A DNA stretch of 25,298 nt, from contig JBJMMA010000101.1 of the NCBI GenBank assembly GCA_045805065.1, forward strand, positions 1 through 25,298, written 5' to 3'. Below, in pieces: positions 526 to 18,510 of this stretch. A program made the translations under genes and the position numbers. The notes under the pieces were generated by a model. It was not told the DNA's origin, did not search any database, and worked only from the letters and a program-made list of their open reading frames with translations. Position 1 is the first letter of the stretch, and the number at the start of each line of letters is the position of its first letter. The DNA is from Bdellovibrionia bacterium (GTDB taxonomy: Bacteria > Bdellovibrionota > UBA1018).

Positions 526-1115
526 TTGAGGATAAGGAGGATTTTCTTGTGAGTGCGGCGTTTGCCATCGATCGCAAGAAAATCCTCGCGAGCCATTCCA
601 ACCAGGGATGACGTCAGCTCGCTTCGTACTTGTACGGAGCGAGCTTCGATGTACTCGCGAACCTCTTTTTCGTTACAGCGAACAAAGAGCTCAAAATCCG
701 CTTTAGGCGCAGGACCACGTCCGACGGGCTTGAGTGCCACGACATATCGTCCCAGGCTCACCACATATTCTGCGGATTTAAGATCGGCCAGGCGCGAGTT
801 TTCAGTCTCCTGACGTTTCTTCTCTTCAAGCTCTCGCTCTTTCAGCTCAAGCGCCTGTCTGGCGCGAACATGACGGATTCGCTTCACGGCCGCAACGGAC
901 ACAAACCCGATTCCCACGATCCCCAGAAAGAAAAGCAGCGCCGTTCTGCGCGTCGGGGCATCCGATGAAAAAAGAGACCCGAAAAGATCTTTGAAGAAAG
1001 CTTTGAGACGAGTCAGCGCGCCCGGCTTCGCGGCCGTGTCCTCAGGTTTCTGTTCCTGAGCGTTTTGATCTGCTTTAGCTTCCTGAGAGGAAACCTCTAG
1101 ATTGGGTTGATCCAC
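453..1115 (-). CDS. fliL: FliL-like flagellar basal-body-associated protein
   Basis: GTG start and one TM helix (ALLFFLGIVGIGFVSVAAV). The C-terminal domain has the FliL pattern LGRYVVAL...QVRSELTSSL...DFLAIDGKRRTHKKILLILN...IEDAWFGDLVVE. Confidence 0.72.
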   Translation of the reverse strand: MDQPNLEVSSQEAKADQNAQEQKPEDTAAKPGALTRLKAFFKDLFGSLFSSDAPTRRTALLFFLGIVGIGFVSVAAVKRIRHVRARQALELKERELEEKKRQETENSRLADLKSAEYVVSLGRYVVALKPVGRGPAPKADFELFVRCNEKEVREYIEARSVQVRSELTSSLVGMAREDFLAIDGKRRTHKKILLILNQWLAREYSGARIEDAWFGDLVVE

Positions 1116-5465: not shown

Positions 5466-5517
5466 GATTAAGAATAAATTGAGAGTAGTCCACTTAGACT
5501 TAGACTAAGCTTAAATC

Positions 5518-6084
5518 TTAATGATCAAAGTACTCTCGTATTTCCGTTTTACCCTTTTCTAAATACCTCAAGCAAAGCTTAGCTTTATTTGTGCTACCCA
5601 ATTTCGACTTCTCGATCTTCTTCTTTAATTTTTCGACCTCTTCAATGGCACTCGCAAACTCATGCTTCCAGGGGCCGTCTTGATACATTCCACTGCAAAT
5701 ACTCGACAATATGTTTTTTGGAGCTAGACTCAGGGTTATTACAGGATCCTTTTGCAATGCACCTACAATGGCATTTGTTAGTTCACCATAAGCACCCGCA
5801 TCTGCAACATTTACAAAATCAATTGCAAGCTTAATCCGGTTCGCATCTGCAGCTTGAATTTGATTAAGCACACTTTCCCACTCTGTACGATTGCCGTAGA
5901 CTTGTTCCAATACTCTCCTTGGTCCATCCTTCTTGATCCTCGCTTGCAACACAAAGCTAGAGGTAACAAATTTCTCATCTGCATCGGACGATGCATGGCA
6001 ACACACATTCCATAAAAGACCTAATGTAATGCAGAGAAGCACACAAAATGCTCTTAATTTTTTACGCAAAATTGCAAAAACCAT
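5518..6084 (-). CDS. Exported helical protein, probable orphan Rhs immunity protein
   Basis: AT-rich 188-aa ORF with a signal-like N-terminus (ending CCHA-S) and helical core WESVLNQI...DAGAYGEL..AIVGALQKDP. Last gene of the array downstream of the Rhs fragment; function inferred from context. Confidence 0.6.
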   Translation of the reverse strand: MVFAILRKKLRAFCVLLCITLGLLWNVCCHASSDADEKFVTSSFVLQARIKKDGPRRVLEQVYGNRTEWESVLNQIQAADANRIKLAIDFVNVADAGAYGELTNAIVGALQKDPVITLSLAPKNILSSICSGMYQDGPWKHEFASAIEEVEKLKKKIEKSKLGSTNKAKLCLRYLEKGKTEIREYFDH

Positions 6085-6189
6085 TACTTATTCCCTAGAA
6101 GCATACAAGTTATCATGAACCCAGTCGAACTTGACTTCGATAAGTCATGAAAGTATGCAGTAATTAACTTGGCGATCACTCTCTCGAAA

Positions 6190-6456
6190 TTAAGCGTTAA
6201 ACCGTGGACCATATCTTAGGATAAATGCGACATAGAAGAGAGCTATGGCCAGCAATATGCTCGAACCAAGCACAAAGAAGCGGTTTTCGGTCCTAAAGCT
6301 TATCCATATTCCAATTGCCATTGCCAGAAGTGTCAGAAGAACCGAAGGCCACCACTGATCTGAGAGACCATGAAGTTGAGTAGATAAAATACTGTAGGCA
6401 AAATATCCTGACATTCCGCTTGTCAATGATGTCAGAAGTGGAAATCGTCGTTTCAT
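6190..6456 (-). CDS. Small three-TM membrane protein, probable orphan immunity protein
   Basis: ATG at 6456 gives 88 aa with three hydrophobic segments. It directly follows a degenerate Rhs-core scrap. Confidence 0.55.
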   Translation of the reverse strand: MKRRFPLLTSLTSGMSGYFAYSILSTQLHGLSDQWWPSVLLTLLAMAIGIWISFRTENRFFVLGSSILLAIALFYVAFILRYGPRFNA

Positions 6457-6490
6457 GATTAGTTGCCTACCTGTGGTGATCACATCATCA

Positions 6491-6554
6491 CCCTGCAAAC
6501 CCAAATGGCTGAAACCCAGGATTGAGTCAGGAATGTTCTTCCTCAGAAGTCGTA
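6491..6554 (-). pseudogene. Degenerate second copy of Rhs core segment ([11 protein letters not shown])
   Basis: 6495-6523 matches 7391-7419 at 27/29 nt. The - strand reads [11 protein letters not shown] then TGA (6488-6490). Upstream traces of YD.F.G.NI..D are broken by indels and a stop. Confidence 0.85.
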
Positions 6555-6562
6555 GACGTATT

Positions 6563-6922
6563 TTAGTCTACAAACGCAACCCAGCTCTTGGTAACTTTTC
6601 CATTAGCGTAATTGATCGTGCAATAATATCGACCGAAGACAAATCCTTCCCAGGCCATAATTGTCATTTCTCCTGGTAGCTTTTTTTCTTCAGTGGAGGC
6701 TCCCACACTAGTCCTTAATCCGAGCTCTCTTGCTTTTTCTTCAATGCCATCGGAAGAGCCACCAACCGGCGCCGCTGCGCAAAGTTGCTCAGTGAGTTTC
6801 TTTGCCTTCGATATTTTCCATTCCGGGTACGCTATCAACAGCAAGCCAATTACTAATAAGATTCCGAGAGACTTGTACAAACCACGATAACCTAAACTCT
6901 TAGCATTCAATTTGAAGTACAT
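6563..6922 (-). CDS. Probable cognate immunity protein of the Rhs toxin tip (TM anchor + small extracytoplasmic domain)
   Basis: ATG 6922 overlaps the last 16 nt of the Rhs ORF. TM helix [16 protein letters not shown], then a small alpha/beta domain with two Cys (QLCAA, YYCTI). Confidence 0.7.
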
Positions 6923-7700
6923 GAGTTTGCCCCTCCGAGCCCCCAAATCAATTGAGACTCTGTCGGTTGAGTCTCACCAGGGCGCACATATATTAACTTT
7001 TTAAAATGATAACCAAAAGTTAGGGTATTTACCCAGGCATTTGAATGGCCATCTTTAACTAGTTGCTGAGCAAGCAGATAGTGCTCGGCGTCAGCTGCGT
7101 CCTGAGACGTATCTCCTGTTAATCTTGCACGCAATGCAAGGTTGAGAGGAGTTTCGTTTCCAAGTTTTTTCGCTCGGTTTTGATAATTGACAATCATTAA
7201 AGCTACATTAACGTCATCAAGGCCCATCGGATCGACGAAATTGATCGGATCACTCATTGTATAGCCGTAAAGATTCGTATCTCTGCCAGCAAACAAGACC
7301 GGGTCCTTCGCGAGCCATCTCCCTGCAGAGGCATCATAATCACGCGCTCCAAAGTGAGTCAAACCGGTCTCAGCATCATACATCCCACCCGCAAATCCAA
7401 ATGGCTGAAACCCTGGATTCGAATCAGTAAGGATGTTACCAAATTCATCGTAGTCCATTTGCTGAGCAACCGATCCATCAGCCGCATTGATGATGAGTCG
7501 TGGACTACCTAAGTGATTGCTGATGATCTGATAAGTCACGCCAGCCTTGATCATGTACGCAGGCACGTTGATCTTATCACCGTAGACAAACTGACTTACC
7601 ACATTGCCTGATCCATCAAGTTCAGCAGCAATCCTAAGATCATCCAAATAGAGGAAACCCTGAACCAGAGTTCCGTTGACTTGTTTTCCAATCCTGCGAT
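6907..7700 (-). pseudogene. 5'-truncated (orphan) Rhs-repeat-associated core with variable C-terminal toxin domain
   Basis: The frame is open up to the IS end: [80 protein letters not shown], then a 103-aa tip (6907-7218). Confidence 0.92.
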
Positions 7701-7729
7701 TGACCGGCTCCCAATCATTGTACCACTTT
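7701..7729. repeat. IS terminal inverted repeat (IRR)
   Basis: tgaccggctcccaatcattgtaccacttt; the first 12 nt match the reverse complement of the other end at 11/12. Confidence 0.88.
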
Positions 7730-8608
7730 CAATGTTACTTTCGGCAACTCACTCGAACTGTATAACGGCGATTTAAACTGAATCGTTTCAGGCGCAGGTG
7801 GAAGATACCCAAGAGCGCTGTGTGGTCTTTTTGTATTGTAATGCTTCCTCCACTGTTCGGTAATTACTTTTGCTTCAGTGAGCGTAAAAAAGATTTCTCC
7901 GTTTAAAAGCTCGTCTCTGAGCTTCCCGTTGAAGGACTCTACGAATCCGTTTTCCCACGGAGATCCTGGGTGAATAAATAGTGGCGCAATATCGAGCTTT
8001 GAGAACCAGATTCTTAAAATGGAGGCGATAAACTCAGGCCCATTATCTGATCGGATGTGCTCGGGACATCCTCGAGCTAAAAACAAATCGGATAGTATTT
8101 CGATCATTTCTCGAGACGTAATTCTTCTACGGACCTCAAGGCAGATGCACTCTCTTGTAAACTCATCTACAACCGAGAGAATCTTTAAAGGCCTGCCGTC
8201 GTGCGTCTTATCCATCACAAAATCATAGGACCAGACGTGATTAGGTCTCTCTGGGCGCTTTCTAACAGTGGATCCATCGGCAAGCCAGAGACGCGCTCGT
8301 TTAGGCTGTTTTTTAGGAACTTTTAGTCCCTCTTCACGCCAAATTCGGTAGACTCTCTTCACGTTAATCTCCCATCCTTCTTGCCTTAAAAGGGCAGTCA
8401 CTCGGCGATAGCCATAACGACCGTACTCGGACGCAAGCTTGACGATCCGCTCGTTCAATCTCTTTTCATCATCAGGTCTTCTCGCGACGTAACGCTGAGA
8501 GGATCTGTACTGATTTAAAGTTCGACACGCCCGGCGCTCAGACACCTTTAACTTCTTGACGACATGCTGAACCGCATCTCTTCGTCTGGCCGGGCTTAAA
8601 ACTTTCCC
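7715..8608 (-). CDS. IS3 transposase OrfB (DDE integrase core), expressed as OrfAB by -1 frameshift
   Basis: [68 protein letters not shown]. The frame is open back to the slippery site ([13 protein letters not shown]...). Confidence 0.93.
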
Positions 8609-8874
8609 TGAGCGACTTCCTTTAAGATCTGATTATCGAGCGCAAGGTTTGCTACAAGCTTTTTGAGCCTCTGATTTTCTTGCTCAAGATCCTTGAGACG
8701 CTTTGCTTGATCGATCCTGAGTCCACCGTACTCTTCGCGCCAACGATAAAAGGTTTGCGCTGTGATACCGGTCTTCTTGCAGCAGTCCTCAATGGATAGC
8801 CCTTTTCCGTTCTCAATTTCGATCGTCCGGAGATGACTGATGATCTCCTCCGGAGAGTATCGTTTCTTAGGCAT
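8596..8874 (-). CDS. IS3 transposase OrfA (HTH + leucine zipper)
   Basis: MPKKRYSPEEII, TFYRWREEYGG, RLKDLEQENQRLKKLVANLALDNQILKE; SD AAGGGAG upstream. Confidence 0.93.
   Translation of the reverse strand: MPKKRYSPEEIISHLRTIEIENGKGLSIEDCCKKTGITAQTFYRWREEYGGLRIDQAKRLKDLEQENQRLKKLVANLALDNQILKEVAQGKF
8602..8608 (-). other. -1 programmed frameshift heptamer G-GGA-AAG
   Basis: X-XXY-YYZ motif one codon before the OrfA stop (cag gga aag ttt taa); the -1 frame continues into OrfB. Confidence 0.75.
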
Positions 8875-8912
8875 TGGATTTTACTCCCTTTCTGGCCCAG
8901 TCTATCACTTCC

Positions 8913-8942
8913 AAACTGGACCGGTTTTTGGGGAGCAGGTCA
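8913..8942. repeat. IS terminal inverted repeat (IRL)
   Basis: Reverse complement tgacctgctccccaaaaaccggtccagttt aligns with 7701-7729. Confidence 0.88.
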
Positions 8943-9134
8943 ACTAATATTCCTGACAGACTTGGTCAACTACTAAAACATCGAAATGGATTTTTGCGTT
9001 TTGGCCTCACGCGCTTCAATTCTTGTGATGTGTTTTTACTGACACGACGACATATTGTAGCGTCTTCCCTACAGCCAATTCCCCACACCCAGTCCGAAAA
9101 TCGGTCTCATCTCAAATTTATCCTGTCCTGAGGG

Positions 9135-9151
9135 CTGGCCAGCCTCTTGCT
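9135..9151 (+). promoter_or_regulatory. Sigma54 (-24/-12) promoter
   Basis: CTGGCCAGCCTCTTGCT versus consensus YTGGCACGNNNNTTGCW, with exact GG-N10-GC spacing. It lies 38 nt before an ATG with a strong SD (AGGAGG, 9178-9183). Confidence 0.7.
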
Positions 9152-9189
9152 CATGGGCCTCCCGCGATTCTAATCGCAGGAGGAAATTT

Positions 9190-10197
9190 ATGAGAGAACT
9201 AATGAAAAACAGCCTGGCCCTAACACTGGGGCTTGGCATCTTGTTGGCGGGAACCCCGTCTTACGCAATCTTTTACACCCCCGAGCGCTGCGCGTTCGAC
9301 AGCCTCAATCAATGGTCACATGATTTGGATCCCGCCCATAACGGCACAAACGCGGACGCTAAGGGTACAGCGCGCGGGAGAAATGAGTGGTTCAGAGTCT
9401 GCCAACCGGGAATCTACGATACCGTCTATCCAACTCCGAGCGGCAATCCGACTCCCGAATTCAACAATGAGTATGATCCACTCATCAGCAAAAATGGATC
9501 CCATCGTCGCGTTTACGCAACTTTCGGCATTGTCACCGGCTTTGATTCAAACGGACAAACCCTCTTTCACAACAATGCTTCTAGCGGAGCATGGGTTGCG
9601 CCTACAGTGGCAGCCGCAAGTTCCGGCGCATCCGAGTGCGCAATGCCAAGTGGCTTTAAGTTCGTTGGTCTTTGCACTTCTGGGTGCGTAACGCCTGAGC
9701 AAGAAATTGCATCTCCTCAAGGCGATCTCGCGATAGAAGCACTGGAAAAACTCGAAACTCCGGCTGTCTACGTTCCAGAAGCAGGTCTGAATGGTGGAGC
9801 TTTTCGCCTGAGCGAAATTCCAGCCAAACGGTTCGTCAAAGACGTCACGCCAGCTCAGCAAAAAGTACTGGAAGTGTCCACTCTCTCTGGCGCCAAACTT
9901 CGCGTCTCTCCCGAACACCCTTTGCTGACTGGAAATATGACTTTCTCCATCGCTCAGGATCTAAAAGTCGGCCAAACACTGATTAAGGCCGATGGCAGAC
10001 AAGATCCTATCGTTTCGATCCAGGAAACGAGCTACTTCGGAAAGCTTCACAACCTCTATGTAGACACTGCTCGCATGGATCAAAGTCTCTACATCGTTCA
10101 AGGCTTTGTGAGCGGCGACAAACACTATCAAGACGTCAGCGTTTCGGACCTGAATCGCATGGCATTGCGCAGGCTCGTTCAGGTTTCCAATAAGTAA
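9190..10197 (+). CDS. Secreted protein with C-terminal Hint (Hedgehog/intein-like) autoprocessing domain
   Basis: Signal peptide (..PSYA-IF) and a ~140-aa unknown domain with 4 Cys. Hint block A G|C166VTPEQEI, block B LRVS240PEH243PLL, AQDLKVGQTL, IVSI, KLHNLYV, YIVQGFVSG. No terminal His-Asn. Confidence 0.85.
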   Translation: MRELMKNSLALTLGLGILLAGTPSYAIFYTPERCAFDSLNQWSHDLDPAHNGTNADAKGTARGRNEWFRVCQPGIYDTVYPTPSGNPTPEFNNEYDPLISKNGSHRRVYATFGIVTGFDSNGQTLFHNNASSGAWVAPTVAAASSGASECAMPSGFKFVGLCTSGCVTPEQEIASPQGDLAIEALEKLETPAVYVPEAGLNGGAFRLSEIPAKRFVKDVTPAQQKVLEVSTLSGAKLRVSPEHPLLTGNMTFSIAQDLKVGQTLIKADGRQDPIVSIQETSYFGKLHNLYVDTARMDQSLYIVQGFVSGDKHYQDVSVSDLNRMALRRLVQVSNK

Positions 10198-10200
10198 GAC

Positions 10201-10264
10201 GCAGATACTCATCGGTGAGAAGGGCCGCGGCCCTAACTGCTTAGACAATCTGCCTGGCCCTTCT
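10201..10264 (+). promoter_or_regulatory. Intergenic inverted repeats (alternative stem-loops)
   Basis: agaagggcc (10218-10226) / ggcccttct (10256-10264); 14-bp palindrome agggccgcggccct (10221-10234); gcagat (10201-10206) / atctgc (10248-10253). Confidence 0.45.
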
Positions 10265-10314
10265 TACAGAACCCGTTTTCCAAGCCTTTCCACTTTTTTG
10301 AAAAGATGTGATTT

Positions 10315-12396
10315 ATGAATTTTCTTTCGTTGCTAATATTTCTGGTATTCGCGGCCTCTTGTAATTCGGCAACTTCCGCCACCCAAAACCACTCCCCTGC
10401 GCCAACGTCAGACAGCGGTGCCTCGGTCACTCATCACGCTCGAGTCACCTGCAAGCCGTCATCCGATCCATTGAGCTGCCTACGAACTAATTGCAAAGAA
10501 ATCGGCGCTCAATTTAACGAATCCCAAAAGCGCTGCGAATGCCCAAAAGGAAAGAGCCTGAACACAGATCAAGGCTTTGAGTGCGTTTCGTCGGGAGATA
10601 TCTCTCCAATTGCTGACTATCTTAAAATGAACATGGGAGGAGCCACCCTTTACGCTAACTCCACTTCTACTTTACAAACTTTTTTTGAACGAGATGGAGC
10701 GGCGGTTGGGCACACTTCGACTCGTGGCAGCCTCATTGTCGCTAAGGATCCGAAGGATTTAATGTCAAATGGACAGGCCAAAACTATTTTGACAGGATCC
10801 AAATGGGATCTTTTCACAGTCAATTGGTTAAACGCACCCCAACTCAATATTTCCAGCTCGGGCAATGACGGTATTGCTGACCGCATGGCCGACCTAAATC
10901 TGGATTCAAAAATTGCATTCCTGGAGCCCAATTTCCCGCTTCGAACAGGTGCAGCAGATCTGGATTCTACGATCGAACAAAGTCTGGCCCTTTCGAAAAA
11001 CGTTCCTGCCGAAGAAAATTACATCTCATATACCGAAGCGGGCTGCATCGATCAGTGTCTGGCCGACTCTCAGGTCCTTGAGAGTCATCAATTCCGTGTC
11101 ACTCGTCAGCGCTATTACTATGGTGGCACTGTAGTTCAGGATCTCATCACAGTCTTCGACCGATACAAACAAGAAGACGCAGCGGCACTCTTCCTGATTA
11201 ACGGACATCTTGCCTACTCCGTTATCCAAGAAGGCAGTGAAACCTGGTTGCATGGAAATGAAGGATCCATTGCAGAGAGTCGCATCAAGCTTCTTCAGAC
11301 CTTTCCTGATCGTACATCCATCCCAACTGAAACAGCTTTCAAAGACGAAACGCCTATCGTTATTTTTGAGAACGCAGAGAATGCGAATTTGGCGCCGATC
11401 GTGCCTCGAGGGCCTTGGAAGCAAAGCCATGTCTTTGGCTGGTTCAAACCTCAAGATGAACAACCTTTCTTCAAAAACTATCCGGGCTACAATGCTGATT
11501 TTGGCAAAGAGCATCTCGCGGGCGGTCTTGAATCCTCTCATCCGATCGCTGTCGCAAATCTCGCATCCAACAATTATCAGCACCCTTTAATCCCGCTCCA
11601 AGAAGCAGACCTTCTGAACGGAAGCTTTACGACTTTTGCAAATAACTATTCCGAAGCTCTGTCGGCATCCGCGACAAAACGTGCCACTCAACTTGTCGCA
11701 TCCGTATCTGAAGCCACGCCGATGTCCCCATCCGCTTGTCAAAACGGTCCGATTGGAAATGCAATCTCAGCTGCAAACTCTACGCTCTGGGTAATGGGAG
11801 CATCCAACTCAGGAGCAGACCTTGCCGTCGGAAAGAACATCTGTCCTCAATTATTGAACGGGAGTCGAATCATCAAGGTTGCATCATCGAGTGATGGAGA
11901 GCGACTCGTGTCAAGCTCCGCATACGGGCGTAAATCTGTCGACATTGCTGAAATCGGCTGCAGAGGCGTCCATGAAGCTAGCTGTAAATCCGAAAATGCA
12001 GCTACTTCGTTTGCCGCTCCCCGCCTGGCTCGAAAAATCGCGGACCTTGCCAATGAGTTTCCGATGGCAACGCCAGAGCAGATTCGCTTTGCAATGCTGA
12101 TCACAGCGAGAATCCCTGGAGCTGTATGCACCGGTTGGAACCATAGACACTGCGAGTATACCCAAGCACTTCCCGTCAGAAGTGGTGGCTTTGCTGATCC
12201 TCATGCAGCCAGAGTACTTCTCAGCGAACTTGCGACTCATGGCTGGCCAGATAGCTCAAAGCTTCAAACCGCTGAGTGGGTCGATCTCATCGTGCGAGCA
12301 ACCGCCGATCAACTTGACGACAAAAATGACGACCAGCGCGGACTGCTTGCTCTAGACCGCATCATCTTTCTTCGGGCTAATCAAGGAGCTCTCTAA
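10315..12396 (+). CDS. Lipoprotein with Cys-rich N-domain and divergent subtilase (S8-like) domain
   Basis: Lipobox AAS-C16 and a six-Cys module (aa 46-90). Propeptide-end-like SKIAFLEPNF. S8-like motifs IVIFE352N, SH409PIAVANLA, WVMGASN498SG, IIKVAS, SSAYGRKSVDIAEIG, ATS565FAAP, SGG. Confidence 0.78.
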   Translation: MNFLSLLIFLVFAASCNSATSATQNHSPAPTSDSGASVTHHARVTCKPSSDPLSCLRTNCKEIGAQFNESQKRCECPKGKSLNTDQGFECVSSGDISPIADYLKMNMGGATLYANSTSTLQTFFERDGAAVGHTSTRGSLIVAKDPKDLMSNGQAKTILTGSKWDLFTVNWLNAPQLNISSSGNDGIADRMADLNLDSKIAFLEPNFPLRTGAADLDSTIEQSLALSKNVPAEENYISYTEAGCIDQCLADSQVLESHQFRVTRQRYYYGGTVVQDLITVFDRYKQEDAAALFLINGHLAYSVIQEGSETWLHGNEGSIAESRIKLLQTFPDRTSIPTETAFKDETPIVIFENAENANLAPIVPRGPWKQSHVFGWFKPQDEQPFFKNYPGYNADFGKEHLAGGLESSHPIAVANLASNNYQHPLIPLQEADLLNGSFTTFANNYSEALSASATKRATQLVASVSEATPMSPSACQNGPIGNAISAANSTLWVMGASNSGADLAVGKNICPQLLNGSRIIKVASSSDGERLVSSSAYGRKSVDIAEIGCRGVHEASCKSENAATSFAAPRLARKIADLANEFPMATPEQIRFAMLITARIPGAVCTGWNHRHCEYTQALPVRSGGFADPHAARVLLSELATHGWPDSSKLQTAEWVDLIVRATADQLDDKNDDQRGLLALDRIIFLRANQGAL

Positions 12397-13055
12397 TGAA
12401 AACTAAAATCGTGCTCATGATCTTTGTGTTGATTACTATGGCTGGTCTTGCAGCTAAAAAATACGGAACCTCTTCGCCCTCAGAGACGGTCGCTGCTTCC
12501 AAAATGCGACTCATGGGTCAGAGTCAGGAAGAGCAAAAAGATGAAACCGCACAGGCCCATCCAAGCTCGGACAAAAATGAGCGCCAGCTGACACAAAGCC
12601 TGGTCAAACTTCAGGCCCTGTCCAAAATCGTGATTTCAACTCCTGAGAAGACGGCAGCTCTTCGAGATCTTCTCTCCGATCAGCGTCTGCAGGCTGAAAT
12701 CTCTCGCGTGATGGTCGACCCGGGCACTTATCAAGGCGAAGGGTTTCATCGAAAGCTTCGGCTGATAGATGCTCTTTACGAAGGATTGAAGATTCAAGAC
12801 TCAAGTCTTCAAGAACGGTATTTTACGATCGCTTCGGATGTCATGACGGTTTCTCCACCAGAGGTCATCCAGAAAGATCCAGAGCTCTTGCGGCAGTTTG
12901 TGGCAGATCGTGCTGAAATTGCGCTTTCGCTGCTCAAGGCGTTTCCAGAGCGAGCTCAGGCCATGGAACGTAAAACCACATCCGAGAGCAAAGAAGCCGC
13001 TCTGGCGTTTCAGAACGCACATCGCCTCTTATCGACCTATAACGTGTCCATTTGA
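12396..13055 (+). CDS. Membrane-anchored or secreted all-helical hypothetical protein
   Basis: Translationally coupled (TAATG, 12394-12398). Hydrophobic N-terminus, polar linker and amphipathic helices; no family recognised. Confidence 0.75.
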   Translation: MKTKIVLMIFVLITMAGLAAKKYGTSSPSETVAASKMRLMGQSQEEQKDETAQAHPSSDKNERQLTQSLVKLQALSKIVISTPEKTAALRDLLSDQRLQAEISRVMVDPGTYQGEGFHRKLRLIDALYEGLKIQDSSLQERYFTIASDVMTVSPPEVIQKDPELLRQFVADRAEIALSLLKAFPERAQAMERKTTSESKEAALAFQNAHRLLSTYNVSI

Positions 13056-13083
13056 TTTAACCCGTTTTTAAAGGAATGTTTTT

Positions 13084-16000
13084 ATGAAAAAGCTCCCCCT
13101 GGTTCTTTTGACTTTCGCCCTACTCCAGCAAGCGGCAATAGCCGCCGATCCTCCGCCCCCCGTGGATATCCCCATCGATATCAGTATGCTCAACCCTCCG
13201 CAGCTGGGTGGTGCCTATCACTCCGCATCCCAACGTTTTTCTAGTGCCTGCGTTCGAAACCCAGGGGGTACGATCGAGGTGAACCAGCAAGGCTCTCTTG
13301 CTGCTGAGATCGAGTCCAGTACTGAAGATGCTCTCTCCTCACTGGGCCTGCAGACCAGTGGCCGCTACAGCACCGGGCTCACGAAAACCTCTGCCTCTGC
13401 GGAGTTTGCAAAATCGACGATTCAGTCCGCATTTACGGTCAATCTGATTTACAAGTTCGTAAGCTCCTACTCCGAGCAGTTCAATGAGTCAGGAGACAAT
13501 AGCGTTACGATTAAAGACGCTTTCAAGTCTCTTCTCAATAACCAACGTGGCTTCTACCAGACTTGTGGTGATGAGTATGTCAGCGCTATCACGCGTACGG
13601 CTCAGATCCTGGTCAATCTGAGCATTCAGTTTGCTTCCAAAGAAGAAGCTCAGTCATTCGGTGCGCAATTTAAGTATGATTCACCCCACGTAGGAATCCA
13701 TGCAGCATTGGAAAGCGCGACCAAGAACGTCAGCAAGAAAACCAAAATGACGTTCAACTCGATTCAAATCGGGGGAACCGCCGGAAAATCGGGCAAAGCC
13801 ATCTGCCCAAGCGATATCTTGGGAAATGCCGGTCGCGATTCATCCTGCTCTGATTCCATGGTGCAATGCGGGTTCGGAAGCTTCAGTCAGTGCATCAACC
13901 TTTTTGAAAAGATCATCAGCTATAGCGCAGGCGATTTCTCGGATCAAATCGTCGATAAAACGAACGGTCATCCTCAGAACTACGCTGTGGCTGCGGTCCA
14001 TACCGAGCCTTATGTCTATGCGGGTGCGGACTTTCCCCAAGTTCCCGATGCCTCGCAGGAAAGATCCTTTCAAAATGAGCTCGCTATTTTAAATGGCCAT
14101 TTTGAACGCTATTTCAAGCAATGGGTGCTCGCAAGCAGGATTCTGTCCAACGAAGTGCCAAGACTCTCAGATCGACAACGCGGCAAAATGAATGCCGTCC
14201 AGCTGCAGCTTCATGATCTGGTCATGGGGCTCGTCAATCGAATCGACGATTGCTATAAGTCCGGCTACGCTGCTTGCGAGAAAAACTCAGGTGCAGAGCT
14301 CAACACTTTCCTGGACCAACAGCTTGCAAGCTTGAAAACAACTTTTGGCAGCGATCTGGATGATTCTGTCGTTGGAAAACTCGATGCAGATGGCGTTGAG
14401 GCTTCGATTATGAAGCTCAGTGCGCCTGAGACCTTTGCTCAGTTCTGTGACATCGCGGATGATCTGCATCCCTCATACAAAAGAACGGTCGACACCCTGA
14501 AAGCCGTGATCGACGCACAAGTCAAGAAAGCCAATGGCGAATTGCCTGAAGATCTGACTCACGGTGATCTTTGCGTGAATTATGGCCTGCGCCTCAATCG
14601 ATTGACCGAGCTTGATCTTTCGGCTCCAGTGGATGGAAAGCAGCTTTCCATCGGAAGCCTGGCTCCGCTGACAGCTCTTCCATCACTCACCCGCTTGAAT
14701 CTTGCCGATAGAGGCATCACGGACATCTCGCTTCTTCAAAATATGAGGAATCTCGAGTCGCTTAATCTGGATGGAAACGCCATTGATGATGTTTGCGCTT
14801 TGTCATCTCTGCCGAGGTTGCGCACGCTGAGCATTCAAAACCAGCAAGGTCAACTCGAGTCCATCGCATGTCTAAAATCCTCTCCTAAGCTCACCTCGCT
14901 GGATGTGCGTGGCAATCCTGGCAGCTTTACATGCCCCTTAAGCGATCCCCGCGGATGCAAGCTTCTCGATTTTACAAAATCGCTGACGATCTCCAAGCGT
15001 GCCTCACAGTGCGAGTTCAGGGTCGGAGCCCAAGCAACCACGATGTATGGCGCCCAGGTTCTGGTCTCGGGAGGAGTTGTTCCTGCAGATGGATATCATT
15101 CCATCAACTCTCTCTCGATCTACGACCAGAATGGCTGTCAGGCTGCTCCATCGACGCTTCAAGTGGCTCGGGCCAACCATACGGCAACGGCGCTTTTAGA
15201 CAGTCGCATTCTGATCGCCGGAGGCGACACGGATACTCTTGAAATCGTGACGCCTGTTTTGGGATTCAAGTCACAGCTTCTGCCCGTTCGCATGGATTCG
15301 GCGAGAAGCTTTCACACGGCGACACTCCTTCGCGATGGTCGCGTTCTGATCGTGGGAGGTTATCGTTCCATGATCGGGTTTTCGAGAGCTGGAGCCGTAC
15401 CATCACGTACCTATCAGATTGTGAATCCGCTCACGGGCAAGATCGATCTGACGGGAACACTTGTCTTTCCGCGGGCTGAGCACACGGCCACTTTGCTGGC
15501 CAATGGTTCTGTTTTGATCTTAGGAGGAAATCTCGGTGATCGAAGCCTGGCATCCGCTGAAGTCATTGATCCTGCGCAAACGTCCTCTCACTTGCTGGGT
15601 GACATGCTCGAGCCACGCTTTGGACAGTCGGCTTCCACGCTGCCGGATGGAAGAATTCTGATCGCTGGGGGTTTCAGCTACAAGGCCTACAAAGATAAGG
15701 ACGGCAATACGGTCATGACCCCAGCTGGCTTATCTTCGGTTGAGATCTATGATCCTTCAACTCAAAGATCCGAGCCGGTTCAAGATCATCTTGCCGTCGG
15801 TCGCGGAATGATGGCCACTCAGGCGCTTCCGGATGGCAGGATTCTTTTAGTGGGCGGAAGCATCGCTGGAAAGCTCTATGATTTCCACGCAGGTCGCATG
15901 CCTTCAAGCGCGCCAAACTATGAGGACTTCTTAGGCGCATCGTCTGTGATTGAAATCTACGATCCACAGACCGAAGGACTCTATCGCACGAACGATCTTT

Positions 16001-16122
16001 CGCTCGGACGAGTGCAGGCAGGCTTTGCGATGCTGAAGCCATCGGTCTACCTGATCATCGGTGGAACTGGCTCAAACGCTTCGCCCCTGAGCTCAGAGCT
16101 GGTGATTTACCGCGGACTTTAA
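13084..16122 (+). CDS. Secreted multidomain protein: MACPF/CDC-like N-domain + helical linker + LRRs + 7 Kelch repeats
   Basis: Signal peptide (AIA-A). MACPF-like elements LGGAY...C56, FYQTC161GDEYVSAI, QIGG and two alternating amphipathic segments. Five internalin-type LRRs (~14590-14920). Seven Kelch repeats of the R.xHTATLL.DGRVLI.GG type (~15015-16100). LRR and Kelch calls are strong; the MACPF call is moderate. Confidence 0.8.
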   Translation: MKKLPLVLLTFALLQQAAIAADPPPPVDIPIDISMLNPPQLGGAYHSASQRFSSACVRNPGGTIEVNQQGSLAAEIESSTEDALSSLGLQTSGRYSTGLTKTSASAEFAKSTIQSAFTVNLIYKFVSSYSEQFNESGDNSVTIKDAFKSLLNNQRGFYQTCGDEYVSAITRTAQILVNLSIQFASKEEAQSFGAQFKYDSPHVGIHAALESATKNVSKKTKMTFNSIQIGGTAGKSGKAICPSDILGNAGRDSSCSDSMVQCGFGSFSQCINLFEKIISYSAGDFSDQIVDKTNGHPQNYAVAAVHTEPYVYAGADFPQVPDASQERSFQNELAILNGHFERYFKQWVLASRILSNEVPRLSDRQRGKMNAVQLQLHDLVMGLVNRIDDCYKSGYAACEKNSGAELNTFLDQQLASLKTTFGSDLDDSVVGKLDADGVEASIMKLSAPETFAQFCDIADDLHPSYKRTVDTLKAVIDAQVKKANGELPEDLTHGDLCVNYGLRLNRLTELDLSAPVDGKQLSIGSLAPLTALPSLTRLNLADRGITDISLLQNMRNLESLNLDGNAIDDVCALSSLPRLRTLSIQNQQGQLESIACLKSSPKLTSLDVRGNPGSFTCPLSDPRGCKLLDFTKSLTISKRASQCEFRVGAQATTMYGAQVLVSGGVVPADGYHSINSLSIYDQNGCQAAPSTLQVARANHTATALLDSRILIAGGDTDTLEIVTPVLGFKSQLLPVRMDSARSFHTATLLRDGRVLIVGGYRSMIGFSRAGAVPSRTYQIVNPLTGKIDLTGTLVFPRAEHTATLLANGSVLILGGNLGDRSLASAEVIDPAQTSSHLLGDMLEPRFGQSASTLPDGRILIAGGFSYKAYKDKDGNTVMTPAGLSSVEIYDPSTQRSEPVQDHLAVGRGMMATQALPDGRILLVGGSIAGKLYDFHAGRMPSSAPNYEDFLGASSVIEIYDPQTEGLYRTNDLSLGRVQAGFAMLKPSVYLIIGGTGSNASPLSSELVIYRGL

Positions 16123-16159
16123 TCGTTACGACGAGACTCTGGCTCGGCTTAGGCCCGAC

Positions 16160-16783
16160 TTAGGCTCCACTGGGCCAAAGCTGAGCCGGAGGTCTTTCTC
16201 CGCGATTCAAAAAGTCCTGAAATTCTTTCAAGCGTTGAGCCTGATCGTTTTTCAACGAATCCAGACGAACCGACTGCTCTTGAGTGCGTCGATCCTCATC
16301 ATCGCTTTGAATCTTTAAAAGCACTTCACGGCGACGAAGATAGTCCTGAACGTAGCCTCTACGATCGGGTCCACTCTTGTGCTCAGCAAAGAACTTGTGA
16401 CGAGCCTGGCGTTCTTTTCCTTCCCACTCGTTGAGCTGCGCTTTATGTGCGGCTCGAAGCTCTTTCATCTCGGACTTATGCCGATGCTTGAGAGCAGCCA
16501 TCTCGTTGTCCTGAGCTTTGCTGTACTGCCGCAAAAGCGTTTTGGCTTCGGAAGGCGTAACGGTTGGAGAGACCGTAGGAGTATGGGTTGGAATCGCAGG
16601 GCTTCTCGGCGGGAACAAAACCGGAGACGCGCTTGCAGTAGGTTCACCGCTTGGACTTGCCGATGGAGCTGGCGATGGCGATGCGCCGTGGACACTCGTG
16701 AGCCCATAGGACAGCCCAAATGCTCCAAGAATTCCAATAAAAGTGGTAACTCCTAACGCGGTCTTCCTTCCCAATCGAGTCAT
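16160..16783 (-). CDS. Exported Pro/Ser/Thr-linker coiled-coil hypothetical protein
   Basis: Signal/TM N-terminus, SPSPAPSASPS linker and charged helical C-half. ATGA overlap with the protease stop. Confidence 0.78.
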   Translation of the reverse strand: MTRLGRKTALGVTTFIGILGAFGLSYGLTSVHGASPSPAPSASPSGEPTASASPVLFPPRSPAIPTHTPTVSPTVTPSEAKTLLRQYSKAQDNEMAALKHRHKSEMKELRAAHKAQLNEWEGKERQARHKFFAEHKSGPDRRGYVQDYLRRREVLLKIQSDDEDRRTQEQSVRLDSLKNDQAQRLKEFQDFLNRGERPPAQLWPSGA

Positions 16784-18510
16784 CTTGATGCGGGAGTTTC
16801 CATGATGAACTCAACTTTGTCCATCTTAAAACCCCACTTGTTGATGCTCGAGTCGGCCTTGAGCCGGATGATCATCGTGTCGCCTTGAATATATTCGGAG
16901 ACATAATCATCGGCCCCGCCCGAGACCAGATCAATGACCTGGCCATTCGGCGATTCCATACTCACCGCGTCGTAATGCTGCTCAACATCAATCTTCTCAA
17001 AATGAACGCGAATATACTTTGCGCCAGGAACATGAACGGTCCAGGTCTGGTTAGTGCTCTCCACGTAAGGATGAGCTGATTCAATCACTTGATCCTGAGA
17101 CTTCCAAAGCGACTCAGGTGGATCAAGGCTTGGAGGAACGATGTTATAGAGCGCGTTGTAGGCACTCACACGGCCCTTGGACATGACTTTTCTTCCCAGC
17201 GTGCGAACCGGCGTGCTGGTCTTGATCAAACGATCCTTGATGACATCAAAGGTCCACTCGGGATGCTCGGAGGCCAGAAGTGTTGCGATGCCTGCCACGT
17301 GCGGCGTTGCCATGGAGGTTCCGCTCAGGCTCTTATAATCGCTGCCCATATACGTGCTGTAGACGTTCACGCCAGGTGCCGCGACGTGGACACGTTTTGA
17401 TCCGTAATTAGAGAAAGTGGCGAGCGTATCGCGGTTATCAATTGCAGCAACCGATACGATATTTGGAAGCTCATAGCTCGAAGGATAGGTAGGATTTTCA
17501 CCATCGTTGCTCACGCCGTCGTTTCCGGCTGCAGCGACAAAGAGAATGCCTTGAGCCTGAGCTTTCTGGATGGCTTGATACATGACATCCGAGAAGCCTC
17601 CCCCGCCCCAGCTATTGCTCATGACTTTGACTTTCATCTGGGTGGCATAGTTGATCGCGTTGACTGCAGCCTCAAGCGTGCCGCCGCCGTTGGCGTCGAG
17701 AAACTTCAGAGGCATGATGGACGTGTTCCAGTTGATGCCCGCGACTCCGACTCCGTTGTTTCCACCTGCGCCGATTACGCCTGCGCAGTGAGTGCCATGG
17801 CCATTGTCGTCGTTTGAGGTGTTCTTGTTGTCGGCAAAGTTCCAGCCATGCACGTCGTCGATGAAACCATTTCCGTCATCATCCATTCCGTTGCCGGCGA
17901 TCTCGCCTGGATTAGTGTAAAGATTTGCAGCCAGATCCGGATGATCCCATTGAACGCCGGTATCAATTACGGCTACAATGGTGTTCTTGTTTCCAACGAT
18001 TCCTTTTTCCCAAAGCGCAGCGATAGCGATGTCGCTTCCCACGTTACCTGTCTGGCCTTCGGGATCGGCCTGACCGAGATTGCTCATGCCCCATTGCTTT
18101 TGAAACTCAGGATCGTTTGGAAGGCCCTGAGCGCCAGTGCGCATGTCGAGTGCGTGATAAATGTAATTAGGTTCTGTCAAAAGCACGGAAGGTTCGCCTT
18201 CGAGGACCTTCATCGCTGAGCGAGCCAGGGGCTCGTTCTTCATCTTCACAACAGCAAGACTTGCGTCGGTTACGAACGGATGAATCTCATCGACCGATGC
18301 TTTCCCGAGTCTCATCTGCAGAGTTTGAAGAACCGCGCCTCGTCCTGCGCGTGAGCTTGCGGCATCCCGAAACTTGACCACAAACTCACCTGGGACATGC
18401 TCAGCGATGGCAGCGGGCCGAAGAGGCGCCGCATGCGCCATGGAAAATGCCAAACCACCCAACAAACTTCCAATCGTGCCGGCCGCGATGAGTTTCGGAA
18501 AAGATGACAT
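16780..18510 (-). CDS. Secreted subtilisin-like S8 serine protease with propeptide and C-terminal CUB-like domain
   Basis: Signal peptide (AHA-A), HVPGEFVVKF..TEPNY propeptide, VAVIDTG, GHGTHCAG, AAAGND, SGTSMATPHVAG. C-terminal ESAHPY..WTVHVPGAKYIRVHF..YD..DSSINKWGF. Confidence 0.95.
   Translation of the reverse strand: MSSFPKLIAAGTIGSLLGGLAFSMAHAAPLRPAAIAEHVPGEFVVKFRDAASSRAGRGAVLQTLQMRLGKASVDEIHPFVTDASLAVVKMKNEPLARSAMKVLEGEPSVLLTEPNYIYHALDMRTGAQGLPNDPEFQKQWGMSNLGQADPEGQTGNVGSDIAIAALWEKGIVGNKNTIVAVIDTGVQWDHPDLAANLYTNPGEIAGNGMDDDGNGFIDDVHGWNFADNKNTSNDDNGHGTHCAGVIGAGGNNGVGVAGINWNTSIMPLKFLDANGGGTLEAAVNAINYATQMKVKVMSNSWGGGGFSDVMYQAIQKAQAQGILFVAAAGNDGVSNDGENPTYPSSYELPNIVSVAAIDNRDTLATFSNYGSKRVHVAAPGVNVYSTYMGSDYKSLSGTSMATPHVAGIATLLASEHPEWTFDVIKDRLIKTSTPVRTLGRKVMSKGRVSAYNALYNIVPPSLDPPESLWKSQDQVIESAHPYVESTNQTWTVHVPGAKYIRVHFEKIDVEQHYDAVSMESPNGQVIDLVSGGADDYVSEYIQGDTMIIRLKADSSINKWGFKMDKVEFIMETPASR

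Follow-up and report, generated by a model that had tools for sequence, protein, structure and literature searches.

A conserved four-gene accessory module of Bdellovibrionota encoding a Hedgehog-like Hint protein, a subtilase-like lipoprotein, a small helical protein and a predicted MACPF-fold LRR/Kelch protein

The DNA analyzed here (the window) is a stretch of 25,298 nucleotides (nt) from a Bdellovibrionia bacterium (contig JBJMMA010000101.1 of GenBank assembly GCA_045805065.1). It carries four genes, P0001 to P0004, for a Hedgehog-like Hint protein, a subtilase-like lipoprotein (S8L), a small helical protein named Hel and a large protein with a predicted MACPF/CDC fold, leucine-rich repeats (LRRs) and Kelch repeats. 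Together they form a real, conserved and apparently undescribed gene module, whose parts come from known superfamilies and whose combination appears to be new. The four open reading frames (ORFs) and the elements between and before them are the following.

9136..9151, forward strand: sigma54-type -24/-12 element TGGCCAGCCTCTTGCT (GG-N10-GC), 39 nt before the ATG of P0001
9190..10197, forward strand: P0001, Hedgehog-like Hint protein, ORF of 335 aa; signal peptide 1-26, N-domain (HintN) 27-165, Hint domain 166-310, C-terminal helix 311-334
10221..10234, forward strand: GC-rich perfect 14-nt palindrome AGGGCCGCGGCCCT in the 117-nt gap between the Hint gene and the S8-like gene
10315..12396, forward strand: P0002, subtilase-like lipoprotein, ORF of 693 aa; lipobox Cys16, small Cys-rich module, region of about 330 aa of unknown fold, divergent S8 domain
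12396..13055, forward strand: P0003, small helical protein Hel, ORF of 219 aa; N-terminal hydrophobic anchor or signal, low-complexity linker, helical-repeat domain of about 130 aa
13084..16122, forward strand: P0004, MACPF-like/LRR/Kelch effector, ORF of 1012 aa; signal peptide 1-20, predicted MACPF/CDC fold about 25-320, helical bundle about 322-505, internalin-like LRRs about 507-620, Kelch beta-propeller about 650-1012 (both repeat regions with strong Pfam and PDB sequence matches)

An earlier note on this DNA had described a sigma54-driven operon of four exported proteins in an accessory slot. Its account of the layout agrees with the ORFs and their translations: the genes share one orientation, they are spaced by 117, -1 and 28 nt (the start of P0003 overlaps the stop of P0002 by 1 nt), and all four products carry export signals. 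These are a signal peptide ending at SYA26 in P0001 and at AIA20 in P0004, the lipobox Cys16 of P0002 and the hydrophobic N-terminus of P0003. The -24/-12 motif was found ahead of the first gene and is conserved, and the slot beside an Rhs remnant proved to be an insertion that is absent from a genome of the same genus (both below). Co-occurrence of the four homologues in other genomes, which the note had proposed as a test, was found in 15 distinct genomes or contigs, all of the Bdellovibrionota. A sixteenth copy, on contig L084, nearly duplicates that of genome G002. The full cassettes are located as follows.

Genomes and loci: the window, G002, G052, G126 (the same as L023), G384, G169, G263, G207, G322, G396, G296, G268 and L028
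Metagenome contigs: L082, L083 and L084

When three-gene and contig-cut copies are included, seven GTDB families are represented (f1, f18, f21, f22, f25, f27 and f31). In G002, which belongs to a different genus, the same four genes lie in the same order with 25-32% identity. For each of the four families a hidden Markov model was made from five cassettes, and the models were applied to loci that had been chosen by a hit to the N-domain of P0004 alone. 14 of the 20 loci obtained in this way carry the long protein type. All four genes are present and co-linear at nine of them (G126, G384, G169, G263, G207, G322, G396, G296 and G268), three genes at three (G098, G141 and G219), one copy is cut by the contig end (G270) and one long gene stands alone. 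The gene order is permuted in L083 (S8L-Hint-Hel-N-domain gene), in L028 (S8L-Hel-Hint with a divergent N-domain gene) and in G219 (Hint-Hel-N-domain gene, no S8L). Since the linkage is kept through rearranged gene order, it is good evidence of a functional tie. In many cassettes starts and stops overlap or nearly abut. Over 401 genomes of the phylum, in which related genomes are not independent, the N-domain occurs in 40 and HintN in 57, and both occur in 22 compared with 5.7 expected by chance. Of these 22 genomes, 17 have the two on the same strand at a distance of 0.2-3.8 kb. A word-indexed protein search returned six relatives of the Hint family and, for the N-domain, the query alone, and a search of sequencing runs revealed no RNA run and four soil-metagenome DNA runs of one study, which contain 0.21-0.35 of the query words. 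The closest cassette (L023, 45% identity) contains, in place of the 28 nt that separate Hel and the MACPF gene in the window, a candidate ORF of 167 aa that starts with GTG (L023:8487-8990).

The N-terminal part of P0004 (residues 1-510) has no Pfam or PDB sequence match. Its AlphaFold2 (AF2) model reached a pLDDT of 86.3 and a pTM of 0.81 (85 sequences). Six hits were found with Foldseek against the PDB at E <= 1e-3 (from 1.6e-5), all of them MACPF proteins: stonustoxin (two chains), a PlyB-type pore, MPEG-1 (two entries) and Plu-MACPF. The weaker hits are nearly all MACPF/CDC proteins as well (C8, TgPLP1, pneumolysin, perforin, listeriolysin, perfringolysin and EaCDCL); astrotactin-2 and the Bacteroides protein 3kk7 are also among the structural hits. 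Alignment with VIA-align gave Z 9.9 for stonustoxin (279 residues, 3.8 A), 9.1 for the PlyB-like pore 9uj0, 8.0-8.2 for MPEG-1, 7.9 for EaCDCL (9ccq) and 7.5 for perfringolysin. A search of 48,161 chains that was independent of Foldseek placed stonustoxin first again. All of its hits over residues 25-320 are MACPF/CDC proteins, and the others are generic helical bundles on residues 322-447. Altogether, the structural matches with MACPF/CDC proteins have Z 7-9.9 over 170-279 residues. The bent four-stranded sheet with two flanking helical clusters, by which the MACPF/CDC superfamily is known, is present in the predicted model, with strands at 118-133, 164-182, 221-229 and 301-309 and helical clusters at 80-112 and 186-213. 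The regions of the two clusters (73-117 and 183-220) have Ser/Thr/Ala/Gly fractions of 0.58 and 0.39, compared with 0.32 overall, and their family-mean hydropathy alternates. Both properties are expected of segments that refold into membrane hairpins. The structural model thus supports membership of the P0004 N-domain in the MACPF/CDC superfamily at the level of the fold only, and from this fold the protein may form pores.

The N-domain belongs to a large family. A profile made from four relatives matched 1831 clusters at 50% identity with E <= 1e-3 among 1.84 billion representatives, 972 of them at E <= 1e-10 and 216 at E <= 1e-30. Most members have about 600-650 aa (N-domain plus LRR) or about 950-1010 aa (with Kelch in addition), and the copies from named genomes all belong to Bdellovibrionota. 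In two full cassettes the effector is short. That of G052 (L021:89-1717) has 542 aa and consists of the N-domain and an LRR stub, and that of L028 (L028:5647-7566) has 639 aa with N-domain and LRR and lacks Kelch. Membership in the cassette thus does not require the Kelch propeller.

For P0001, matches to the intein/Hint models of Pfam and NCBIfam stayed below the cut-offs. The AF2 model (pLDDT 81, 23 sequences) identifies the Hint fold clearly. VIA-align gave Z 19.2 for the BIL domain 2lwy (134 residues, 2.0 A), 18.5 for the NpuDnaB intein, 18.2 for Hedgehog 1at0 and 16-19 for many mini-inteins, and the Foldseek TM scores to Hint structures, normalized by target, are 0.56-0.86. In the structural alignments Cys166 takes the place of residue 1 of inteins and of Cys258 of 1at0. 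All 23 aligned sequences have Cys166, His243 and Pro244. The TxxH motif of block B is present with Thr or Ser at position 240 (Ser240-x-x-His243 in P0001), and nearly all members have Gly165 ahead of Cys166. The C-terminal Asn of inteins is absent; the aligned residue is Asp310 in P0001 and Asp, Ser or Ala in homologues. After the Hint domain there is only one conserved helix of 25 residues (311-334). Because Cys1 and TxxH are present and the terminal Asn and a C-extein are not, P0001 is not an intein, and N-terminal cleavage alone is expected. Judged from its model, P0001 is built like Hedgehog, with a cargo followed by a Hint domain that should be able to form an N-terminal thioester but not to splice.

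The cargo, HintN, contains four cysteines that are invariant in the 23-sequence alignment (C34, C71, C150 and C162). A Pfam scan of 15 HintN sequences at E <= 1 gave nothing but stray hits, and a sequence search of the PDB gave no match. The structural search with the whole of P0001, in which the Hint domain filled the list of matches, gave none on HintN. By its sequence, HintN is a new Cys-rich domain.

P0002 matches the Pfam family Peptidase_S8 with 25.6 bits (cut-off 21.8) in its C-terminal half, at profile positions 109-273. Homologues reach 39.7 and 59 bits, the match in G052 covers profile positions 5-272, and the nearest Atlas clusters are all S8 proteases. Over 16 aligned members, the catalytic columns hold Ser in 16, Asn in 16 and His in 15, and the acid is Glu in 11 and Asp in five. 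In P0002 the residues are Glu352, His409, Asn498 and Ser565, with the canonical S8 protease of the window as reference in the alignment. A lipobox is present in all five S8L members whose N-termini were inspected. P0002 is thus a divergent lipoprotein subtilase with a chemically plausible Glu/Asp-His-Ser triad and is probably active. That it might be a dead protease was considered and rejected, as the His, Asn and Ser columns are conserved and no member has a residue other than Glu or Asp at the acid position.

Hel did not match any family in the Pfam and NCBIfam scans. In the Atlas it is modelled as a helical, HEAT-like protein, and its closest clusters there consist of hypothetical proteins from Myxococcota and Bdellovibrionota. 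A predicted complex of the MACPF N-domain (25-510) with Hel (60-219) had a score of 0.00, which is evidence neither way. The comparative data pair Hel with Hint, so the MACPF N-domain and Hel were probably the wrong pair for such a prediction. A role of Hel as simple immunity protein against the MACPF protein was rejected on two grounds: Hel follows Hint genes that have no MACPF gene, and it is missing where MACPF paralogues are accompanied by HintN only.

The consensus of sigma54 promoters is TGGCAC-N5-TTGCW, with the -24 GG and the -12 GC 10 nt apart. TGGCCAGCCTCTTGCT agrees with nine of its 11 positions. Of 16 cassettes, 13 have an element with at least nine of 11 consensus matches at a distance of 39-85 nt ahead of the first gene's probable start; it is lacking in L069, L071 and L072. 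In control scans it was found in none of 12 genes for long Hint lipoproteins and in one of two Hint-S8L-Hel triads without MACPF gene, and the background was 20 hits in 210,728 nt (about one per 10.5 kb). The difference between cassettes and the 12 controls, together with the low background, indicates that the motif is specific to the MACPF-containing cassette. Expression of the cassette is, by this motif, probably RpoN-dependent. Scans of the three intergenic gaps revealed neither a sigma70-like promoter nor a terminator-like site, and the four genes are likely to be co-transcribed. The palindrome AGGGCCGCGGCCCT is not followed by a T-run and was not called by the terminator scan. It may form an mRNA hairpin that gives the first gene and the later genes different levels.

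In addition, the Hint unit occurs in other contexts. HintN-Hint also forms the C-terminus of lipoproteins of 830-1050 aa (L092:2317-5768; L093 and L096-L105). The one that was scanned with Pfam, that of L092, contains PKD and TSP1-like modules. At all 12 of these loci the gene is followed directly by a Hel homologue, whose start often overlaps the stop before it, and neither S8L nor MACPF genes lie nearby. In one family in which this pair is frequent, 23 of 53 sampled genomes have HintN. The long Hint lipoprotein with Hel looks like a self-standing, undescribed system for the processing of surface proteins. Hint-S8L-Hel triads without a MACPF-like gene on either side are present in G143 and G308 (L106-L109), and the genes downstream of them are unrelated (AAA/DUF4143 and EamA; a FAD-binding protein, LysE and GNAT). 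Stand-alone HintN genes, two or three per genome, lie directly upstream of a MACPF-like cluster in three genomes of another genus. At L077:9300-14935 (mirrored in L078), two tandem HintN genes precede three tandem MACPF-like paralogues. The HintN genes keep the four cysteines, end in a Pro-rich tail and lack the Hint domain, and there is no Hel at the locus. The paralogues encode a protein of 638 aa with LRRs, one of 406 aa and a lipoprotein of 515 aa, and have no Pfam hit. The locus has the look of a variant of the system with several components, from which Hint, subtilase and Hel are missing.

Hel accompanies every examined locus that has a Hint domain and enough downstream sequence. The pattern suggests two pairings, Hel with the Hint domain and HintN with the MACPF protein. 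Since Hel tracks Hint, it may control or receive the Hint reaction, and since HintN stands alone beside MACPF-like paralogues, it is probably a co-factor or second component of the MACPF protein. The parts that the earlier note had listed are borne out by these data: a Hint domain with catalytic Cys166 (fold at Z 19, cysteine invariant throughout), an S8-type lipoprotein protease whose Ser565 is the aligned catalytic serine (Peptidase_S8 above cut-off), a helical partner that is present in the cassettes, and a protein of 1012 aa with an N-domain of MACPF/CDC fold in the AF2 model and LRR and Kelch repeats after it. The note had read these parts as a mirror of the logic of complement. An indivisible pathway of the four proteins does not stand, because the Hint-Hel pair is found without a MACPF gene.

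The cassette lies on an accessory island. A DNA comparison with genome G001 of the same genus showed that there relA is followed within about 35 nt by the gene for a 207-aa protein, the gene for an S8 protease with CUB domain and recJ. As relA joins these genes directly in G001, the stretch at about 5466-16172 of the window is a 10.7-kb accessory insertion. The remaining features of the island are the following.

5466..9135, no strand: part of the island upstream of the cassette, with GC content dipping to 0.41-0.47, absent from the G001 site
5518..6084, reverse strand: ORF of 188 aa
6190..6504 and 6563..6946, reverse strand: two small ORFs adjoining the Rhs remnant
6907..7647, reverse strand: Rhs/YD-shell C-terminal remnant (Pfam)
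7715..8874, reverse strand: IS3-family element with orfB at 7715..8545 and orfA at 8596..8874 (Pfam)

The two small ORFs at 6190-6946 may encode an orphaned Rhs toxin tip and the matching immunity protein, and Rhs-like fragments of the stretch 5466-9135 recur on several contigs of G001. On the other flank of the cassette (16160-18510, reverse strand), the 207-aa protein, which has no known family, lies with a canonical secreted S8 protease that contains a fervidolysin-type prodomain and a CUB domain. G001 has both genes at its site without the insertion, so they are part of the core genome rather than of the island. The first 525 nt of the window encode the C-terminal part of a sigma54 enhancer-binding protein, with AAA lid and Fis-type helix-turn-helix. 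This gene is not part of the island, its distance from the sigma54 motif of the cassette is 8.6 kb, and nothing ties the two. The cassette is thus an accessory module of four genes and is probably horizontally mobile.

We regard the cassette, with moderate confidence, as a sigma54-controlled accessory pore-forming effector with a dedicated module for autoprocessing and maturation. The steps that go beyond gene content, namely autocleavage, proteolytic maturation, pore formation, target and binding partners, are proposed here from sequences and models. The four proteins would be exported by Sec. In the Hint domain, an N-S acyl shift at Gly165-Cys166 would produce a backbone thioester, from which the disulfide-bonded HintN of about 14 kDa would be released by hydrolysis or by transfer to a nucleophile. 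Membrane-anchored Hel would control or receive this reaction, and the lipoprotein subtilase would mature one of the partners. The LRR and Kelch modules would choose the target surface, on which the MACPF protein would form pores together with HintN. Expression would be gated by sigma54 and an activator, and the role would be the killing or permeabilising of other cells (prey, competitors or grazers) under tight transcriptional control.

Several observations weigh against this account. The MACPF assignment comes solely from a predicted structure, the Foldseek TM scores are low (0.2-0.32) and the VIA-align scores of Z 8-10 are in the middling range. The N-domains of P0004 and of 57 scanned members match no Pfam family, MACPF (PF01823) and Thiol_cytolysin (PF01289) included, and the N-domain profile search found no solved MACPF or CDC structure by sequence. 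The classical MACPF signature is Y/W-G-T/S-H-F/Y-x6-G-G. P0004 has only a loose look-alike, C161-G-D-E-Y-x6-T-A, for which the family consensus is CGDEYV...GA with invariant C161 and G162. In the subtilase, the acid is Glu and not Asp in 11 of 16 members and Pfam S8 covers only the C-terminal half of P0002, so that its activity is not certain. The genes are also found apart. The long MACPF-LRR-Kelch gene of G397 stands without the other three, as do the short N-domain+LRR genes of G385, G162, G311 and G213 (four of four examined). Contigs L086 and L087 lack the other three genes as well, with only about 760 nt upstream in L086, and Hint-Hel and Hint-S8L-Hel units exist without a MACPF gene. 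Finally, the 117-nt gap with its GC-rich palindrome parts the first two genes.

The separate occurrence of the genes is what would be expected if the three small genes were an independent processing and anchoring system and the MACPF-LRR-Kelch gene were cargo of the same island, with no mechanistic link: Hint-Hel (12 loci) and Hint-S8L-Hel (two loci) lack the MACPF gene, and MACPF-like genes occur alone in five genomes (G397, G385, G162, G311 and G213). However, the adjacency survives three rearrangements of gene order, a sequence divergence of 25-45% and seven families, the overlapping or nearly abutting starts and stops recur in many cassettes, and one sigma54 motif precedes the first gene (13 of 16 cassettes, compared with none of the 12 lipoprotein genes and one of the two triads). 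In addition, the short Hint protein of about 290-335 aa is the form of the cassette and is found outside it in only a few MACPF-less or variant loci (G143, G308, G294 and G058). We consider mere co-carriage distinctly improbable. A chance juxtaposition, or ORFs that were called wrongly, has a negligible probability and is already refuted by four ORFs with homologues and conserved residues that lie together in 15 genomes or contigs. A further reading, which we hold to be rather unlikely, is that P0004 is a non-lytic surface or adhesion protein, acting in prey recognition, attachment or envelope remodelling, and that the other three proteins mature and anchor it. LRR and Kelch repeats are binding modules, astrotactin-2 and the Bacteroides protein 3kk7, which we take to be non-lytic, are among the structural hits, and related Hint-Hel units sit on adhesin-like PKD/TSP1 lipoproteins. 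Membrane-inserting hairpins, on the other hand, are expected to have just the length, composition and alternating hydropathy of the two helical clusters. Sigma54 control and an island beside Rhs and IS remnants also fit antagonism better than core adhesion, and only about 10% of the sampled genomes carry the N-domain gene.

It was also considered whether the cassette works like complement, in such a way that the Hint thioester deposits HintN covalently on a target surface, at an amine or hydroxyl of prey envelope or lipid. The surface subtilase would activate the system, and the LRR/Kelch-MACPF protein would bind to the tag and perforate the membrane that carries it. Invariant Cys166 and TxxH without the intein Asn imply that it takes an external nucleophile or water to resolve the thioester. 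Behind the Hint domain, where Hedgehog carries its sterol-recognition region, lies a conserved helix, and HintN genes travel with MACPF-like genes even without the Hint domain. A complement-like mode of assembly has already been described for the bacterial CDCL toxins (PMC11169675). Against such a mechanism, covalent deposition cannot be required where stand-alone HintN lies beside MACPF paralogues without Hint, the Hint-Hel pair is found most often on PKD/TSP1 lipoproteins with no MACPF gene nearby, which points to a role in processing or anchoring on the producer side, and no result obtained here distinguishes transfer from hydrolysis. We consider it quite unlikely. In its most explicit form, to which as a whole we likewise give a small chance, the thioester would be kept until it meets a nucleophile on a foreign membrane or envelope (for instance a sterol, or the hydroxyl or amine of some other lipid, belonging to a eukaryotic grazer or to prey), HintN would be planted covalently, and the LRR/Kelch-MACPF pore would assemble on the planted HintN; Hel would restrain the Hint reaction in the producer and the subtilase would arm the system. 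If this were true, a Hedgehog-type lipid ligation would be the targeting step of a perforin-like toxin, and the cassette would be an independent prokaryotic counterpart of complement opsonisation and the membrane attack complex.

With complement itself (C3/TEP and the membrane attack complex) only the abstract logic of thioester, protease, recognition and MACPF pore is shared. In C3 the internal thioester joins the side chains of Cys and Gln within an alpha2-macroglobulin fold, whereas that of the Hint domain would be a transient backbone intermediate of the N-S acyl shift, and there is no homology beyond the MACPF fold. The nearest known counterparts of P0001 are Hedgehog/Hog and BIL proteins, which share the cargo followed by a C-terminal Hint domain, Cys at position 1, TxxH and the lack of the terminal intein Asn. 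The expected chemistry, an N-S acyl shift and then release of the N-terminal cargo, is also the same. P0001 differs from Hedgehog by the 25-residue helix in place of the sterol-recognition region, by its new cargo, by its Sec export from a bacterium and by the partner gene hel. For P0004, the best matches over residues 25-450 are stonustoxin (4wvm), in which a helical bundle likewise follows directly after the MACPF domain, MPEG-1/perforin-2 and the Photorhabdus protein Plu-MACPF (2qp2). Their sequences are 9-13% identical with it, and no relationship can be detected from sequence. Their ancillary domains are thioredoxin/PRYSPRY, MABP or beta-prism, in contrast to the LRR and Kelch domains of P0004.

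Two kinds of multi-component MACPF/CDC systems were compared. The CDCL toxins of Bacteroidota are encoded by two or three adjacent paralogues with PF01289 matches and signal peptidase II (SPII) signals. They are activated by a C11 protease of the target cell itself, assemble in a complement-like way and are used against other bacteria, and immunity is conferred by the surface lipoprotein BcdI (Abrahamsen et al. 2024, PMC11169675). The cassette is similar in that an exported bacterial protein of the MACPF/CDC superfamily lies in a small accessory or mobile locus with helper genes. Proteolytic activation, a dedicated protective or partner protein and a use against other bacteria would be further points in common. 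It differs in having a single MACPF-fold gene, whose product has a signal of the signal peptidase I (SPI) type, no PF01289 hit and a fusion to a helical bundle, LRRs and Kelch. It also differs in its own subtilase lipoprotein, Hint autoprocessing protein, Hel and sigma54 promoter, and in its host, Bdellovibrionota. As a complement-like bacterial MACPF/CDC system is already in print (PMC11169675), the general logic is not new, but the combination of genes is. The binary aegerolysin/MACPF toxins (pleurotolysin PlyA/PlyB and OlyA6/PlyB) combine a partner of about 15 kDa with a MACPF protein (PMC9174665). They resemble the cassette in that PlyB-type structures (9uj0 and 9do6) are among the best matches of P0004 and HintN has about 14 kDa and travels with MACPF-like genes. 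In contrast to aegerolysins, HintN is Cys-rich and fused to a predicted self-cleaving Hint domain, and it has neither an aegerolysin Pfam match nor a PDB sequence match.

The anti-phage models of PADLOC gave only weak generic subtilase hits (E 3e-4 and 6e-3) and one stray hit. The earlier note knew of no described operon with this combination of genes, and our literature search, which did not extend to subscription journals and supplements, likewise found none, nor any paper that links MACPF with Bdellovibrio or with Hint domains. Besides the combination itself, the HintN domain and the pairing of Hint with Hel are new in the module.

By the structural model, the cassette reveals a large family of MACPF/CDC fold that has no Pfam annotation, in a predatory phylum, the Bdellovibrionota, for which no perforin-like protein came up in the literature searches. 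In bacteria, most known Hint domains belong to inteins or polymorphic toxins. A Hog-type protein that is secreted and has a conserved helper of its own, sometimes beside a pore-former, would offer a testable route to the use that bacteria make of Hint thioesters. The module is small and conserved and has a recognisable sigma54 promoter, and is therefore amenable to experiment. If the cassette kills cells, it would be a second bacterial example of multi-component MACPF/CDC systems after the CDCL toxins, and it would add a new accessory weapon to the ecology of predator and prey and of predator and grazer.

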